IMG/VR virus record: IMGVR_UViG_2690316343_000010
Length of the DNA: 7,751 nucleotides
Direction: 5' to 3' (one strand)
Source: a virus
Taxonomy: Duplodnaviria; Heunggongvirae; Uroviricota; Caudoviricetes
The notes under the pieces are model-generated. The model had not been told where the DNA came from. It did not search any database and was given only the letters and a program-made list of their open reading frames with translations. Positions 1-7,614 of this stretch are shown here, piece by piece (position 1 is the first letter of the stretch; each line of letters begins with the position of its first letter). The translations under genes and the position numbers were made by a program.

Positions 1-787
<787 letters not shown>

Positions 788-883
788 ATATATATGTATT
801 TTCTCTGTTAAGCGTGAGCTACGTGAAAAATAATTTTTGGTGTGGGTATTAACTTTGCTTTATTCACGTAGAACACCGTTAAA

Positions 884-3064
884 TCATTCTTCCTCTGGAT
901 AGCTTGAACTTAAGAGCATATCCTGCGTGAACTGGTCATTAGCTGATTGATTGAAAGTAAAGAAAGATGGTTCATCTGGTCGAACGACAACTTGACCACC
1001 AAGTGAAACTTTCACTGGCTCCTGAATACGCTTACTCAAAGCACTAATTTCATCCCTCAGACCCTGAATATCTGCACTCGTTAATGCTGAATCTTGCTTA
1101 ATGTTGTTTAACTCTGGATGATTGAATCTTGCAATATTCATTGTGGCATTGTTAAACAATTCACCCATTGAACTAAAAATTCTACTCCATCCTTCGTTAA
1201 TCATATTCGGTTTATTAGGGTCACCAGAATACACGGGATTAAAGTCACTACCCACACCTACCCCAGACGGATGCATATTAGCGTTTTTGACTACTTCCTG
1301 ATTCATAAAATCCAGTGCTTTCTTCAATGCATATAAACCAAGAGTGACGCCTCTGATTTGTGGAATCATTGAAGCTAATGCTAACGCTGTTTCATAACCG
1401 TCATCAGCATAACCAATTGCAAGAGCACTACCTACACCACCAGCTACACCTTTCAGTTTTCCACCACCTTTACCAGTAGCTACCTGACCAGCCACCTGAT
1501 TAGCTCTTGTACCTAACGTTGTGATTGCTCTTGTCAGGTTCATAACCCCTGTAGTAGCACTGAATAGCGTCTTTGCAGATAACGCTATAGCAAGACCTTT
1601 GACGAAGTTGATAAAACCATCACCGACTTCATCAAGTAGTTTTCGTTTAGTGTCATCAAGGCTGTAATAGAACTTCTTAGTCTGTAAAATCCAGCCTTCA
1701 ATGGTGTTATTGAATACGCGAATATCATCTACACCAGCTTTAAGCATGTCGATAAGTCCACCGATAGCATCACCAGCGATAGAAGAACTCATCCCCATTT
1801 CACTAAGCAGGTTACTCAGGCTGGATAAGAAGCCGTTTAGCTCATCCTGTGAACCTGAGAAGATTTTCACCATCGTATCATCCCAATTGTTTGCTAACTT
1901 ACCTAAAGCTGTCTGAGTGCTCTTAGTGACTTCAGCCCAGCCACCCGCTTTATCAATCATCAAGCCCATCTGTTTAGCGACTTTAGGGAGAGTATCAGCG
2001 GAAAGTACCTTCCCGTTTTTCATGGCTGCATCAAGCTCTGTAGCAGTCATACCCAATGCTTCAGCGAATAGCTTAAATGCACCAGCCATACGGTCACCTA
2101 ACTGCCCACGTAATTCCTCAGCCTGAATCTTGCCCTTGCTCGCCATCTGCTCAAATGCTCTCAAAATGCCGTTTAGCTCATCGTTAGAAAGCCCCATTAA
2201 GCGACTCATAGCCGTTGCATTACCAAATAGCTCCTGTGTCTGTTCCTGTGACATAGAACCCTGAGCACCTGCTGCAAACTTAGCGTAGCTTGATAGCCCT
2301 TCAGAGATATTAAGACCTGTCTTGTCTGCTAAATTTCGAATAAATACCTCAGCTTCAGATGCTTTATCACCAAGTACAAACTTAGCGGCTCTCTGTGCGG
2401 AATCTCGTTTAAGACCTGCATTCATAATGGCCTTGTAAGCGTTAAGAGCACCCATCACAGAGTAAAATGCACCAGATAATTTAATCGCATTGCTTGCAAG
2501 ATTATTAAATGCGTCGCTTGTATTGTTAATGCTGGCGGTCTTTGTCTGTGACCTGAGTTTATTCAACGTTTCACGAAGAGATTGATTTAATTTTGCAAGT
2601 TCAGCGTTAAACTTTTCACTTCCAATATTACCAGCCTTACCGCTTAAGCTGTAATACTGTGCTTTAAACATTTTAGCCATCAGCGGATTAATATCACCAA
2701 GCTTAGACATATTCACGCTATGCGCTGCTGTGATTGCTCTGTTTCCGCTAATTCGTGGTTGCCTTGATTGTTTTGGAGGATTAACAGTGTCATTAAATCT
2801 GGTGGCAAACTGAAATGCTTTTGTGCTTCTTGCTCTCTGCTCAATCTTGTCAAAGGTCTTATTAAACTTCCTTTCAAGCTGCCCTAAAGAACTTGTCAGA
2901 TTGCTGTCAAGTTGCTTGGTATCGACCTTAAACGCTCTATTCAAATTGCGTTCAATTCTTTGTGCTGACTGCAAAGCTGCCTTTTCAACTCTTTGCAAGC
3001 CCTTAATAACGTTTTCACTGAAACTAAGTTCAACGATAAAACTATCAACTGTGAATTTGCTCAT
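884..3064 (-). CDS. Phage tail tape measure protein (726 aa)
   Basis: Coiled-coil-like N-terminus, then a segment (GNATAMSRLMGLSNDELNGILRAFEQMASKGKIQAEELRGQLGDRMAGAFKLFAEALGMTATELDAAMKNGKVLSADTLPKVAKQM) that matches my memory of the lambda-H-type tape measure domain, then Gly/Ala-rich hydrophobic segments typical of these proteins. ATG at 3064 with RBS AGAGGTGA upstream. Family call is from motif memory, not a search. Confidence 0.85.
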   Translation of the reverse strand: MSKFTVDSFIVELSFSENVIKGLQRVEKAALQSAQRIERNLNRAFKVDTKQLDSNLTSSLGQLERKFNKTFDKIEQRARSTKAFQFATRFNDTVNPPKQSRQPRISGNRAITAAHSVNMSKLGDINPLMAKMFKAQYYSLSGKAGNIGSEKFNAELAKLNQSLRETLNKLRSQTKTASINNTSDAFNNLASNAIKLSGAFYSVMGALNAYKAIMNAGLKRDSAQRAAKFVLGDKASEAEVFIRNLADKTGLNISEGLSSYAKFAAGAQGSMSQEQTQELFGNATAMSRLMGLSNDELNGILRAFEQMASKGKIQAEELRGQLGDRMAGAFKLFAEALGMTATELDAAMKNGKVLSADTLPKVAKQMGLMIDKAGGWAEVTKSTQTALGKLANNWDDTMVKIFSGSQDELNGFLSSLSNLLSEMGMSSSIAGDAIGGLIDMLKAGVDDIRVFNNTIEGWILQTKKFYYSLDDTKRKLLDEVGDGFINFVKGLAIALSAKTLFSATTGVMNLTRAITTLGTRANQVAGQVATGKGGGKLKGVAGGVGSALAIGYADDGYETALALASMIPQIRGVTLGLYALKKALDFMNQEVVKNANMHPSGVGVGSDFNPVYSGDPNKPNMINEGWSRIFSSMGELFNNATMNIARFNHPELNNIKQDSALTSADIQGLRDEISALSKRIQEPVKVSLGGQVVVRPDEPSFFTFNQSANDQFTQDMLLSSSYPEEE

Positions 3065-4104: not shown

Positions 4105-4327
4105 TGCTTTTCCTCTTCTAAGCGGAAGTGTTTCAGTTTTTAAAAAGCACACCTGACAGCCTATCTAAACTTAGAAGAGACTTAAAAGGCGGTTTGCCAA
4201 GTATGCTTTTTAAAAGCTGAATAGCCCTAGATAATTTCTTATAAAGGGCCATTCATAAGGTGAAGAAATTAAAACATCTAAAGGATTCAAAAAGGATTCA
4301 AACGAATGAACAAGAGTACTTTTCGAG

Positions 4328-4383
4328 ATGACCTCTCAGACTAACCTGAAAGGTCATGTAGCGAAAAGCATTGCACCTTTCAG
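4328..4383 (-). promoter_or_regulatory. Mutually exclusive hairpin pair in the intergenic leader (candidate attenuator or riboregulatory element)
   Basis: Plus-strand segment 4346-4357 (ctgaaaggtcat) can pair either with 4328-4339 (atgacctctcag, 12-bp stem with one mismatch) or with 4375-4383 (acctttcag, 9 bp). It lies in a 350-bp non-coding gap between two minus-strand operons. Confidence 0.25.
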
Positions 4384-4502
4384 AATAACTATCATTGATG
4401 TAGAATGATTAATAGTTTAATTCAGGAAGAGTTGCTCTTCCCTATTACCATCATCTCATGCTTAAGGTTATTTGTCAACAGCTTTTTAACAGATTGGTAA
4501 CA

Positions 4503-4580
4503 TCAATTCTTATTTACCGTATTACCTACCCAGCAACCAACAAATAACCCTAAAGTCATCCAGAGAATAACGAGTGTCAT
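4503..4580 (-). CDS. 25-aa hydrophobic micro-protein (MTLVILWMTLGLFVGCWVGNTVNKN), predicted single transmembrane helix
   Basis: ATG 4580..4578 overlaps the TAA stop of the upstream 101-aa gene (TAATG) and is preceded by GAGGTG at a 5-nt spacing. Below the ORF-track length cutoff. I translated it codon by codon. Confidence 0.4.
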   Translation of the reverse strand: MTLVILWMTLGLFVGCWVGNTVNKN

Positions 4581-5247: not shown

Positions 5248-5468
5248 CAAGCACCCCATTCAGAAATAAGCTTAATTCCCTGCTCAAGCTGTTCAGGGTC
5301 GTTATAGTCGAGTATTACCAGTGGCTTTAATTCGTGTTTAAGCTGGTGGATTTGAGAGGGTTTTAATCGTTTGTTTGCTTTGAGGGTCACATCTTCAAAT
5401 TCAGCATCTGCTAAATTCTGTCTGATTAGGTGGCGGCCAAGTGTGGAATATTGGAACCTATAACACAT
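5247..5468 (-). CDS. Hypothetical protein (73 aa)
   Basis: ATG 5468..5466 overlaps the TAA stop of the upstream gene (TAATG), indicating translational coupling. Confidence 0.55.
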   Translation of the reverse strand: MCYRFQYSTLGRHLIRQNLADAEFEDVTLKANKRLKPSQIHQLKHELKPLVILDYNDPEQLEQGIKLISEWGA

Positions 5469-5794: not shown

Positions 5795-5823
5795 ATCTTA
5801 ACATCTATTTAACATATTGTCAG
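5795..5823 (-). promoter_or_regulatory. Sigma70-like promoter (leftward) for the regulator operon
   Basis: Minus strand: -35 CTGACA (5823..5818), 17-nt spacer, -10 TAAGAT (5800..5795), about 40 nt upstream of ATG 5758. Confidence 0.35.
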
Positions 5824-5845
5824 TACCTCATTTACATGATACTAT
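5817..5845 (+). promoter_or_regulatory. Sigma70-like promoter (rightward) with extended -10
   Basis: Plus strand: -35 TTGTCA (5817-5822), 17-nt spacer, TG-n-TACTAT (5837-5845). Its -35 overlaps the -35 of the leftward promoter, a back-to-back divergent arrangement. Confidence 0.4.
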
Positions 5846-5895: not shown

Positions 5896-6072
5896 ATGCA
5901 TGATTTTTTCACAGCAATTATTGAATCTCATCGTTTTAGCTCGTTGGGCTTTGCGGTATTTATTGTGCTATTGGTGTTTTGCGTTATGAATCGAGTCATT
6001 ACAAAAAAGACAAAGCTTACAATTCGACTTAAACTTCTTCGTGTTGAGATAGAGATTTCAGTAAATAAATAG
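5896..6072 (+). CDS. Small membrane protein (58 aa from ATG 5896): one hydrophobic helix followed by a basic C-terminal tail
   Basis: The only plus-strand ORF that lies in an intergenic gap. AAGGAAAA RBS 6 nt before ATG 5896, and the rightward promoter sits about 50 nt upstream. Sequence MHDFFTAIIESHRFSSLGFAVFIVLLVFCVMNRVITKKTKLTIRLKLLRVEIEISVNK. Convergent with the replication operon. Confidence 0.4.
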   Translation: MHDFFTAIIESHRFSSLGFAVFIVLLVFCVMNRVITKKTKLTIRLKLLRVEIEISVNK

Positions 6073-6159
6073 CTGGTGGCCTTACCGGCACTTTCCCTTG
6101 ATAATATTGGTGGCCCTCAGATTACCGGGGTCACCGTCTTTTAATCGTAGCTGGTGGAC
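6070..6159 (+). repeat. Cluster of Chi-like octamers: GCTGGTGG at 6072-6079 and 6150-6157, plus a partial copy attGGTGG at 6106-6113
   Basis: Exact matches to the E. coli-type Chi sequence 5'-GCTGGTGG-3', all in the same orientation on the plus strand. I found no other copy in the window on either strand. The three copies also form direct repeats (agcTGGTGGcc, attGGTGGccc, agcTGGTGGac). Confidence 0.5.
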
Positions 6160-6378
6160 TGAATCCCATAAATCGTAATGATACAGCACCGCAAACTTCA
6201 AAGCGTCAATCTTTAAATCTGTCACATCATCGACGAAATAATAATCCCTCCCTTCTTTCTTCGGTCGAATCCGGTAAACTTCCCCGTGAGTATCTTTCAT
6301 CAAGTAACCTTCACGAGAAATGCTGTAACGTCTGAGTAAATAGTCACGGTATTTTCTCTCGCCATTATAAGTTTTCAT
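6082..6378 (-). CDS. Hypothetical protein (98 aa), translationally coupled to the replication initiator
   Basis: ATG 6378..6376 overlaps the TAA stop of the upstream gene (TAATG) and has a GGAGGA SD. No recognisable domain. Confidence 0.6.
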   Translation of the reverse strand: MKTYNGERKYRDYLLRRYSISREGYLMKDTHGEVYRIRPKKEGRDYYFVDDVTDLKIDALKFAVLYHYDLWDSVHQLRLKDGDPGNLRATNIIKGKCR

Positions 6379-7331
6379 TAAAACATTCCTCCACCATAAA
6401 CACGTCTGACTTTAACTTTTTCTTTCTTTGGCTCGGTGTGAGTTTTCTTTTTTGGTGTAAAAGTAAAATCATCGTCACTATCATCAAAGTCATCGAGGTC
6501 ACTAACCTTGTTCTTTAGCTTCGCATTTCTGAATCTTTCTTTAATTTCTGCTTTACGCTGTTCACGTTTCAATTCCTTTTCAGGGTCTTCTTCATCATCA
6601 AGGTCAACATCCGGTAATTCATCATCAGTGGCGGGGCACTGTGTGTTTTTATGGTCACTACTAGCAATCACATCAGAGATTTTATCTTCCTTTTTAACGA
6701 CCTCTTTAGCAGCTTCACTATCAAGGTCATCTAAGTCAGATGTTTTAACAGTCTCTTTAATAGCCTCTTCAATACCAAGAGAATCACATTCATGTGAATC
6801 ACAGAGCGAAGCTCCCTTCTTAAAATATTCTTCTTCAAAGTCATCTTCTTTATTGTTATTAATAAGTTCTTTCTTGTTATTACTGTTATTATACGTGTCA
6901 AAGATTTTGACTGACTGAGTAAAAAATTTTGACTCAGTGGGTAAAGAATTTTGACTCAGTGGGTCATCTTTCTTGACTGACTGAGTAACTTTAGACTCCA
7001 GCTTTGCCTTTCTGGCTTCCTTAGCTGTAAGCTCTGTTAAAACCTCCGGTACTTCATCAAGTGAATAAACTTTAATAACACACTGATTGCTTGCAACGTT
7101 AGTTTTCTTGATTAAACCATGTGCCTCAAGTTGTTTCATACATGCAATCACGGATGTTCTTGTGATTCCAGCATACTGACCAAGATGAGCATATGAAGGG
7201 GTATAATATTGCCCCTTATCGTGATAAAACTTTTGTTCATTCAACATGACAGTGTAAATAATACGGTCGGCAGCTTTAACGCCATTAGTCATCTGATAAA
7301 TACGGTCATCAAACATGTGGAATTTTTCCAT
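6378..7331 (-). CDS. Lambda-O-like replication initiator / replisome organiser (317 aa from ATG 7331)
   Basis: ATG 7331 has an AAAGGA RBS; the ORF-track start at 7388 is a TTG lying inside a terminator hairpin. The N-terminal 100 aa (for example AHLGQYAGITRTSVIACMKQLEAHGLIKK) resembles the winged-helix DNA-binding domain of phage O-type initiators. Four phased iterons and an AT-rich tract lie inside the gene, encoding the inter-domain linker, as in lambda ori. The C-terminal half is low-complexity and rich in Asp, Glu and Lys. Confidence 0.7.
   Translation of the reverse strand: MEKFHMFDDRIYQMTNGVKAADRIIYTVMLNEQKFYHDKGQYYTPSYAHLGQYAGITRTSVIACMKQLEAHGLIKKTNVASNQCVIKVYSLDEVPEVLTELTAKEARKAKLESKVTQSVKKDDPLSQNSLPTESKFFTQSVKIFDTYNNSNNKKELINNNKEDDFEEEYFKKGASLCDSHECDSLGIEEAIKETVKTSDLDDLDSEAAKEVVKKEDKISDVIASSDHKNTQCPATDDELPDVDLDDEEDPEKELKREQRKAEIKERFRNAKLKNKVSDLDDFDDSDDDFTFTPKKKTHTEPKKEKVKVRRVYGGGMF
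6841..6896 (-). other. AT-rich tract flanking the iterons (candidate DNA-unwinding element)
   Basis: Strongly AT-rich stretch with three copies of TGTTATT, lying directly downstream of the iterons in the direction of gene transcription. This is the same order as in lambda ori (iterons, then AT-rich region). Confidence 0.4.
6905..6988 (-). repeat. Four 18-bp iterons with 22-bp phasing (putative initiator binding sites of an intragenic replication origin)
   Basis: R1 6905-6922 ttttgactgactgagtaa, R2 6927-6944 ttttgactcagtgggtaa, R3 6949-6966 ttttgactcagtgggtca, R4 6971-6988 tcttgactgactgagtaa. Two sequence types in A-B-B-A order; the type-A core ACTGAGT is the reverse complement of the type-B core ACTCAGT. 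Confidence 0.65.
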
Positions 7332-7344
7332 TATATTTTCCTTT

Positions 7345-7391
7345 TTAAAAATAAAACAAAGAAAGGGCTGACCACGTATAGTGACCAACCC
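7345..7391 (-). terminator. Strand-specific intrinsic-terminator-like hairpin plus U-tract immediately upstream of the replication initiator RBS
   Basis: In minus-strand RNA, GGGUUGGUCAC (7391..7381) pairs with GUGGUCAGCCC (7375..7365): 8 Watson-Crick and 3 G-U pairs, 5-nt loop, followed by UUUCUUUGUUUUAUUUUU (7364..7345). On the plus strand the equivalent positions are C-A and A-C mismatches, so the structure is specific to the minus transcript. Confidence 0.35.
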
Positions 7392-7521: not shown

Positions 7522-7614
7522 NNNNNNNNNNNNNNNNNNNNNNNNNNNNNNNNNNNNNNNNNNNNNNNNNNNNNNNNNNNNNNNNNNNNNNNNNNNNNNN
7601 NNNNNNNNNNNNNN
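7522..7614. other. Run of 93 N (scaffold or assembly gap)
   Basis: Literal n characters in the sequence. The ORF-track entries 7450..7659 and 7511..7702 span it and are artefacts. Confidence 0.95.

Follow-up and report, generated by a model that had tools for sequence, protein, structure and literature searches.

A satellite-like chromosomal island of Escherichia coli carries Chi octamers biased to one strand and densest beside its predicted replication origin

The stretch of DNA analysed here (hereafter the window) is 7,751 nucleotides long and is filed as a virus record (IMG/VR IMGVR_UViG_2690316343_000010). It is part of an 11–12 kb integrative island found in Escherichia coli chromosomes, with a guanine-plus-cytosine (GC) content of 39%, and not of a phage genome, as had been assumed in the first-pass annotation. 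Two perfect copies of the octamer GCTGGTGG, at 6072–6079 (Chi1) and 6150–6157 (Chi2), form the local peak of a one-strand enrichment of Chi that extends across the whole element. On the basis of their number, orientation and position we consider it fairly probable that these oriented Chi sites are functional and serve a replicon that depends on recombination and lacks a RecBCD inhibitor.

An exact search of the window places both octamers, as first reported, on the strand as written (the plus strand). The search also returned two copies that had been overlooked when the octamer was said to occur nowhere else: a third co-oriented site at 5342–5349, within a 73-aa minus-strand open reading frame (ORF), and a sole opposite-strand site at 1437–1444, which reads in the coding sense of the tape-measure gene as codons A-G-G. 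Four exact octamers compare with an expectation of 0.12 ± 0.34 per window, and none of 200 dinucleotide-preserving shuffles reached four; for the plus strand the Markov expectation is 0.03–0.14. The 78-bp spacing between Chi1 and Chi2 is by itself weakly unusual: our own calculation gives P ~0.06 for three random plus-strand sites in 7.75 kb.

The surroundings of the two octamers differ. Chi1 fills a 9-nt gap between convergent stop codons, an arrangement noted from the outset: to its left is the TAG of a small plus-strand ORF, which ends at 6072 and overlaps Chi1 by one base, and to its right the TAA (6082–6084) of a minus-strand gene encoding a 98-aa protein. Chi2 is antisense to V/I-H-Q-L codons near the 3' end of that same gene (GTC CAC CAG CTA, or V-H-Q-L, in the window). 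A third, partial copy between them had been taken as Chi-like. This sequence, ATTGGTGG at 6106–6113 on the plus strand, is missed by a one-mismatch Chi search because it is two mismatches from Chi; it corresponds to T-N-I codons of the 98-aa protein, is conserved as coding sequence, and is coding sequence rather than a Chi site.

Comparison of the window to sequenced genomes by megablast placed it in E. coli chromosomes, with partial matches in 534 records; the best match had 92% identity over 83% of the window. Near-identical islands are present in 125–534 complete E. coli genomes, and a single Escherichia sp. contig also carries the island. The islands occupy no fewer than four integration sites (tonB/yciI, wrbA/ymdF, inside yecE and in mdtG), and gene order is fixed among annotated relatives. 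The octamer recognised by E. coli RecBCD is GCTGGTGG (PMC5041463); the host being E. coli, GCTGGTGG is the cognate Chi, and by the criteria of sequence and host the octamers at 6072 and 6150 qualify as genuine E. coli Chi. An earlier suggestion of a Haemophilus host and a P2/HP1-like element, in which the large 726-aa ORF was a replication protein, was rejected on the same evidence: the islands reside in E. coli genomes and the ORF matches tape measure proteins. The description of the Chi pair as lying at the 3' end of a replication operon accordingly holds for the pair formed by the initiator (rep) gene and the 98-aa gene, and fails for the 726-aa ORF.

In order to place the window's octamers in the context of the family, Chi was counted in 56 island copies, made up of 14 islands from complete genomes and 42 further loci, 40 of them metagenomic. 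A search with the 98-aa protein gave only one locus each in genome contigs and viral contigs; an alignment query of metagenome contigs gave 40. The 14 genome islands each carry two to six Chi on the window's plus strand and none to two on the minus strand; over all 56 copies there are two to seven plus-strand Chi per island, where Markov models of order 0–3 predict 0.05–0.3 per strand. Plus-strand Chi exceeds expectation 10–30 fold. Summed over copies, there are 53 plus-strand against 17 minus-strand sites in the 14 genome islands and 158 against 36 in the 42 further loci (367 kb), with means of 4.4 and 1.2 in the 24 near-complete islands. Grouping sites by their flanking sequence reduces these to 18 distinct plus-strand and four distinct minus-strand sites (P = 0.002). 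The count across the whole element that the first-pass annotation had proposed thus yields strong enrichment and an orientation bias of roughly 4:1. Ranked among all plus-strand octamers, Chi or its one-base shift CTGGTGGA stands between first and sixth in six of seven islands and 19th in the seventh. Other octamers that are over-represented on the plus strand (in L002, L003 and other islands) are CTGCATAG, with five to six copies per island and occurrences at 602 and 3448 of the window, and ACTATCAA(G), found at 3041 and 6717.

It had been allowed that the copies might be explained purely by codon constraints. Synonymous-codon shuffles that keep both protein and codon usage gave 0.12–0.50 plus-strand Chi in coding regions, against two to five observed; a fraction of at most 0.0045 of 2000 shuffles reached the observed plus-strand count, and the minus-strand counts fit the null model. 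Codon constraints do not explain the enrichment. Base composition works against the bias, because the plus strand is the G-poor strand. Three unrelated alleles of a resolvase-type cargo gene (34–42% identical) each contain one Chi at a differing position, always on the island plus strand, and this holds with the gene in either orientation; the orientation of Chi therefore follows the island and not the gene. Nor does it follow the chromosome. Host replication direction was taken from K-12 gene orientations and the known replichore map, the GC skew of short flanks being too noisy. The island plus strand proved to be lagging-strand sequence at tonB/yciI, yecE and mdtG and leading-strand sequence only at wrbA/ymdF. 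The bias, lagging at three of four sites, therefore belongs to the island.

Four control sequences are without enrichment or bias of this type: Felixounavirus garuso (85.8 kb, 39% GC) contains one Chi, the satellite P4 (11.6 kb) none, the K-12 O-antigen cluster (12 kb, 39.5% GC) none and the cryptic prophage CP4-6 (34 kb) five. The density in the islands is about one Chi per 2.0–2.4 kb; published values are one per 4.6 kb for E. coli K-12, one per 1.86 kb for phage LLS and one per 1.9 kb for P1 (PMC12315714). These figures bear on the possibility that Chi was acquired by passive amelioration, with which the insertion sequences (IS) or frameshifts seen in many island copies would be in keeping. 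We regard this as improbable: the island has kept its GC content of 39%, it has roughly double the Chi density of its host, the bias keeps its orientation within the island and at three of the four integration sites favors the lagging strand, the 'wrong' one, and the O-antigen cluster, AT-rich and long resident in K-12, has acquired no Chi in 12 kb.

The sites are not evenly spread. Seven of the 18 distinct plus-strand sites fall in a 1.5-kb zone around the 98-aa stop codon, extending 1 kb to its left and 0.5 kb to its right (P = 0.005). This zone adjoins the rep operon and putative origin and holds about 1.8 plus-strand sites per island. What was first seen as a unique local cluster is therefore the dense part of a distribution that covers the whole island. 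Plus-strand sites are also frequent at +1.9 kb, within the Dam methylase gene, and at -3.65 kb, within the tape-measure gene. At the latter position we observed that three allele classes of the tape-measure gene, with strongly diverged flanks, have an intact plus-strand Chi within ~50 bp of one point, ~3.65 kb left of the 98-aa stop (L003 5325, L006 5670, L001 22572); the octamer was either conserved while its flanks diverged or convergently gained.

Chi2 is nearly universal and Chi1 is specific to one allele class. All 15 E. coli islands taken from genomes have Chi2, as do 44 of the 46 distinct sequences of the gene; in those 44 its synonymous positions are invariant, and the rare codons CTA and CGA next to it are retained. 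Chi1 occurs only in islands with one version of the small convergent gene ('type A' islands, 20 of the 56 copies). In 'type B' islands the sequence left of ~6095 is unrelated and Chi1 is absent, which puts the boundary between the two cassettes at ~6095–6100, some 50 bp left of Chi2. The site at 5342 is shared by nine of the 56 copies. The most divergent islands, L060 and L061, are without Chi2; they carry instead a different, non-homologous plus-strand Chi five bases past the 98-aa stop, at the same junction as Chi1, and two more within 750 bp bring the total in this zone of L060 to three.

The junction octamer raises the question of RNA structure. In the clade of L060 and L061 the small gene ends in an intrinsic terminator, GCTGGTGGTTCGTCACCAGC and then GTTTTT, whose stem has the octamer as its 5' arm; with its 8-bp stem, the predicted L060 hairpin has the makeup by which intrinsic terminators are defined. 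In the window, Chi1 pairs with 6083–6089 in a weak hairpin (6072–6089) of 7 bp, two of them G-T pairs, at -9.8 kcal/mol (z = -1.1), followed by the tail ACTTTCCCTT, a poor T-run. Folding of 6055–6125 and of the opposite strand gave no structure better than that of shuffled sequences (z -0.04 to +0.5), which leaves the small Chi1 hairpin as a weak candidate. If this hairpin does terminate transcription of the small convergent gene, Chi1, as its 5' arm, may serve two purposes.

A stronger form of this argument would make both octamers incidental, Chi2 arising from conserved V-H-Q-L codons and Chi1 from the terminator stem of the small gene, in an island that might still be rich in Chi. The textbook terminator of L060, the terminator-like flag that the window's Chi1 hairpin received, and a codon invariance at Chi2 that is not significantly above background all speak in its favor. 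We nevertheless think it unlikely. The window hairpin does no better than shuffles; the two clades differ in the 3' arm and loop and keep the same Chi octamer as 5' arm; type B islands do without Chi1 altogether; the rare CTA and CGA codons beside Chi2 are kept despite their rarity; and seven of the 18 distinct plus-strand sites are concentrated in 1.5 kb (P = 0.005).

Chi1 and Chi2 are each embedded in a 13-nt direct repeat, TAGCTGGTGG(C/A)CT, with copies on the plus strand at 6070–6082 and 6148–6160; L008, L009, L011 and L007 have the same sequence, TAGCTGGTGGACT, in both copies. The repeat reaches five bases past Chi, and by our own tabulation A follows directly (position +1) in eight of 13 plus-strand sites, more often than composition predicts. 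Both facts would suit a protein-binding array, as had been proposed, in which three GGTGG-containing repeats bind an island protein such as the initiator or a regulator. This candidate was tried and rejected, and we now hold it to be very improbable: there are two 13-nt copies only, the middle 'copy' being a six-base match in coding sequence; Chi1 is missing from most islands; the iterons of the initiator are unrelated sequences located elsewhere; and the octamer occurs at 18 dispersed sites, unlike a local operator. Cutting by RecBCD is favored by A at positions +4 to +7 on the 3' side of Chi, with A or G favorable (PMC5041463). By this measure the 3' flank of Chi2 (GAAT) has three purines of four and that of Chi1 (TACC) one of four.

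The dense zone lies beside a predicted replication module. The rep gene is on the minus strand at 6378–7388, a span that is that of its longest ORF (its true start is probably at ~7331–7355); its product is a probable replication initiator of the lambda-O-like/DnaD-N-like winged-helix type, with matches to PHROG 8102, 428, 678 and 345 ('replication initiation (O-like)') and a weak match to DnaD_N. Inside the gene is a putative origin (6846–6984), comprising AT-rich repeats at 6846–6891 and four tandem 22-bp iterons at 6897–6984, each with an internal inverted repeat. Iterons within the initiator gene are, on this reading of the sequence, the layout of the lambda ori. Every allele class of rep has its own three to four tandem iterons of 22–23 bp at the same place in the gene, and iteron sequence and initiator allele vary together across islands; the pairings look like specificity (incompatibility) types. 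We predict that the island replicates autonomously from this lambda-type origin. The Chi pair is 0.75–0.9 kb from it, in the direction of rep transcription.

If the Chi sites are functional, their orientation implies a direction of approach. By the accepted polarity rule, plus-strand sites are active when RecBCD comes in on the right and moves left (PMC12315714), which is the polarity that had been assigned to the pair from the start. A double-strand end to the right of the sites, on the origin and Dam side, would admit RecBCD and let it travel leftwards. Its simplest source, given a leftward fork, would be a rolling-circle tail, ending in an exposed tip; a terminase cut or a broken fork could also supply it. 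Leftward rolling-circle replication would run in the same direction as almost all island genes. On meeting GCTGGTGG from its 3' side, RecBCD would cease degradation and begin to load RecA, and the first Chi that it would meet is the doublet or triplet at 6150, 6072 and 5342. RecBCD recognises a lone Chi only about one time in three, and a doublet or triplet 0.7–1.5 kb downstream of the origin would for this reason raise the chance of capture. Chi action would then spare the DNA on the left and promote recombination by RecA into concatemers or multimers, which a small element would need for packaging (by headful) or for maintenance. We infer the action of RecBCD, the direction of the fork and the selective benefit from the arrangement of the sites. 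The gene content is compatible: no homologous-recombination module was detected, in that no protein of the window or the island matched a phage recombinase, an annealing protein, Gam or Abc2 in Pfam, PHROG or NCBIfam, and having no detectable Rec or Gam genes the element fits the class that lacks both recombinase and RecBCD inhibitor.

Several observations weigh against this account. The counts per island are not independent, because the island copies are related, and some of the 'distinct' sites at ~-3.65 kb may be homologous positions with diverged flanks. The invariance of Chi2 is not significant alone, because 42–66% of degenerate codons vary, and conservation of synonymous sites at Chi2 and at the Chi of the Dam gene is likewise not significant (roughly P = 0.04–0.2 per site). 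In our own tabulation A is not enriched at positions +4 to +7 (13 of 52 positions over 13 plus-strand sites, about background). The polarity differs from that in lambda and LLS, Chi in the island being antisense to the initiator gene. Finally, at least six small ORFs without assigned function could include a novel RecBCD inhibitor or annealing protein.

It is also conceivable that the same actors (Chi, RecBCD and RecA) are at work and that the benefit is a different one, the sites being selected as recombination hotspots that shuffle modules between islands or with an infecting Felixounavirus, and not for protection or the building of concatemers. The cassette boundary ~50 bp left of Chi2 is on the side where Chi stimulates exchange; the island is highly mosaic, with several alleles of rep and its iterons, of the tape measure and of the cargo; patches of 88–93% nucleotide identity with Felixounavirus tail genes imply recent exchange; and Bobay et al. 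associate the hypervariable nin region with densely placed Chi (PMC3784561). Selection for evolvability, however, is second-order and usually weak, and the cassette boundary coincides with the end of a gene. We consider module exchange a somewhat unlikely explanation for the sites; it is compatible with service to a recombination-dependent replicon, and the data do not separate the two.

The account that we favor, oriented Chi exploited through host RecBCD, has close precedents. Lambdoid phages without recombinases over-represent Chi and concentrate it near the origin (Bobay et al. 2013, PMC3784561), and in phages without a recombinase or RecBCD inhibitor Chi orientation is biased ~7:1 (Zheng et al. 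2025, PMC12315714). The island resembles these Chi-rich lambdoid phages (PMC3784561, PMC12315714) in having neither recombinase nor RecBCD inhibitor, in the rank of Chi among the top over-represented octamers, in a density of about one Chi per 2 kb (roughly twice the host's), in a strong single-orientation bias, and in sites beside an origin that lies inside an O-type initiator gene and next to a mosaic region. It differs from them in its size of 12 kb, in the absence of capsid, terminase and lysis genes and of a lambda-like gene order, and in the orientation of Chi relative to the initiator gene, antisense in the island and sense in LLS and lambda. Because the GC content of the island is 39%, Chi is far less likely to arise there by chance than in lambdoid phages. 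In every feature compared, the island matches Chi-rich elements devoid of recombination genes, except that it is not a lambdoid phage.

Chi was originally defined by Chi+ mutations in lambda red gam phage. The octamer and the polarity rule (RecBCD from the 3' side) are the same in these phages as in the island, and a lambda-type replicon without Gam and Red needs RecBCD and RecA to make multimers that can be packaged; lambda red gam Chi+ phages are laboratory mutants with single sites, whereas the island's sites are natural, multiple and conserved in the family. Rolling-circle plasmids offer a model for the tail that a leftward fork would produce in the island: Dabert, Ehrlich and Gruss reportedly found in 1992 that a correctly oriented Chi lets linear multimers accumulate from rolling-circle plasmid tails in recBCD+ cells. 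A non-lambdoid parallel is P1, which has 50 Chi in 94.8 kb and requires RecBCD and RecA (PMC12315714). Chi density in P1 is similar to that of the island and Chi is its top-ranking octamer; unlike the island, P1 is a complete phage that circularises by recombination between terminal repeats.

Judged from its genes, the element is a satellite-like integrative island. It has an integrase and a rep gene with iterons, has no capsid or terminase genes, and at 11–12 kb is within the 5–20 kb of the satellite class. Its phage-like genes are limited to tape measure, Dit, O-like initiator and Dam, and it is without lysis genes. The integrase is a large serine recombinase (PF00239 and PF07508). The tape-measure gene (minus strand, 884–3064; PF20155, phrog_4036, TIGR02675) encodes the 726-aa ORF, a chimeric relative of the Felixounavirus protein, and is followed by a gene for a Dit-like distal tail protein (minus strand, 13–727; PF21821 on the L002 homologue). 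This order (13–3064 of the window, minus strand; 37022–40029 of L017) is that of gp118 and gp119 in garuso. The Dit-like protein is 72% identical to gp119, ~93% over the first 185 aa and divergent thereafter; the tape measure is 33% identical to gp118 overall, with a near-identical N-terminus and central core. At the nucleotide level, 268–703 of the window shares 92–93% identity with more than 100 Felixounavirus genomes, and island and Felixounavirus have equal GC content (39%). Relative to intact homologues, the window's copy of the Dit-like gene has a ~73-nt deletion and a frameshift, and tblastn splits it into two frames; the copy may be defective or contain a sequence error.

The Felixounavirus-like tail genes suggest that the island is a satellite of virulent phages related to Felix-O1, or else a decoy in their tail assembly. 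More specifically, and tentatively, the island could represent an undescribed family of PLE- or PICMI-like satellites of Felixounavirus in E. coli that uses Chi with RecBCD and RecA to build and protect concatemers. Such a satellite would supply its own chimeric tape-measure and Dit proteins; without Gam and Red, oriented Chi together with RecBCD and RecA would generate the concatemers of ~7 units that fill an 86-kb helper capsid; and the Chi doublet beside the origin would be the first point at which a rolling-circle tail is protected. PLE of Vibrio cholerae and PICMI resemble the island in being small, in bringing a replication module, in lacking capsid genes and in their close sequence relation to a virulent phage, and PLE likewise uses a large serine recombinase; the island's tail genes (tape measure, Dit) set it apart from both. 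PICMI is packaged as an 8-mer concatemer (PMC10803314), an illustration of the importance that concatemers have for elements of this kind. The words 'Chi' and 'RecBCD' do not occur in that paper (PMC10803314), and our search of a paper library turned up nothing that connects Chi with phage satellites or that describes a satellite associated with Felix-O1.

Among human-gut metagenome contigs, five (L029, L038, L042, L047 and L052) have the length (11.6–12.2 kb) and GC content of the island and span it end to end without host flanks. Terminal overlaps, a sign of a circular or excised form, were sought in the island-sized metagenome contigs and none was found; contigs that span the island end to end would be expected if assemblies break at the attachment sites of an island present in multiple contexts.

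The remaining genes of the island are less informative. Six or seven small genes without assigned function lie between the tape-measure gene and a divergent promoter region, where candidate sigma-70 promoters (5795–5845) separate the small plus-strand ORF from the leftward operon; these match the consensus and are no commoner than in shuffled sequence. The small plus-strand gene (5896–6072, 58 aa from its ATG), convergent with the rep operon, encodes a hydrophobic protein of 58–62 aa that is common to divergent island clades, with the motif ESHRF..LGF and a homologue at ~530–725 on the minus strand of L060; in type B islands a different 61-aa ORF (WP_000506009.1) takes its place. The protein could be a membrane toxin or an exclusion factor. 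The 98-aa gene (minus strand, 6082–6378), the last of the rep operon and the one that contains Chi2, is a core gene with annotated homologues in every island; its product has no match in Pfam, PHROG, NCBIfam or PADLOC. Elsewhere in the island are a gene for a Dam methylase fused to a helix-turn-helix domain (PF05869) and, beyond it, the variable cargo. Defence-system models (PADLOC) match no island protein. A 430-bp non-coding gap at 4153–4579 contains a perfect tandem repeat of two AAAGGATTCAA units (4280–4301) together with a number of short inverted repeats; it could have a role in regulation or in packaging. A run of 93 Ns (7522–7614), upstream of the rep gene, marks masked or unsequenced bases.

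Enrichment of Chi as the mark of mobile elements that depend on host RecBCD and do not inhibit it has so far been described for lambdoid phages and P1 (PMC3784561, PMC12315714). The principle is already published; what is new is its appearance in a small, AT-rich, satellite-like element, with a signal 10–30 fold over expectation. The same signature (density, polarity, concentration at an O-type origin, no Rec or Gam detected) would extend the rule to much smaller elements, and the pattern of Chi would become a simple, sequence-based predictor of lifestyle. For this family it predicts a linear intermediate exposed to RecBCD, and a polarity, with the end on the Dam and cargo side. Because of the AT-rich background the signal is unusually clean, which makes the family a good natural test bed for the function of Chi. 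Felix-O1-like phages are used for typing and biocontrol of Salmonella and E. coli, and an island that carries tail genes derived from Felixounavirus may be of practical interest as a new satellite or defence element.

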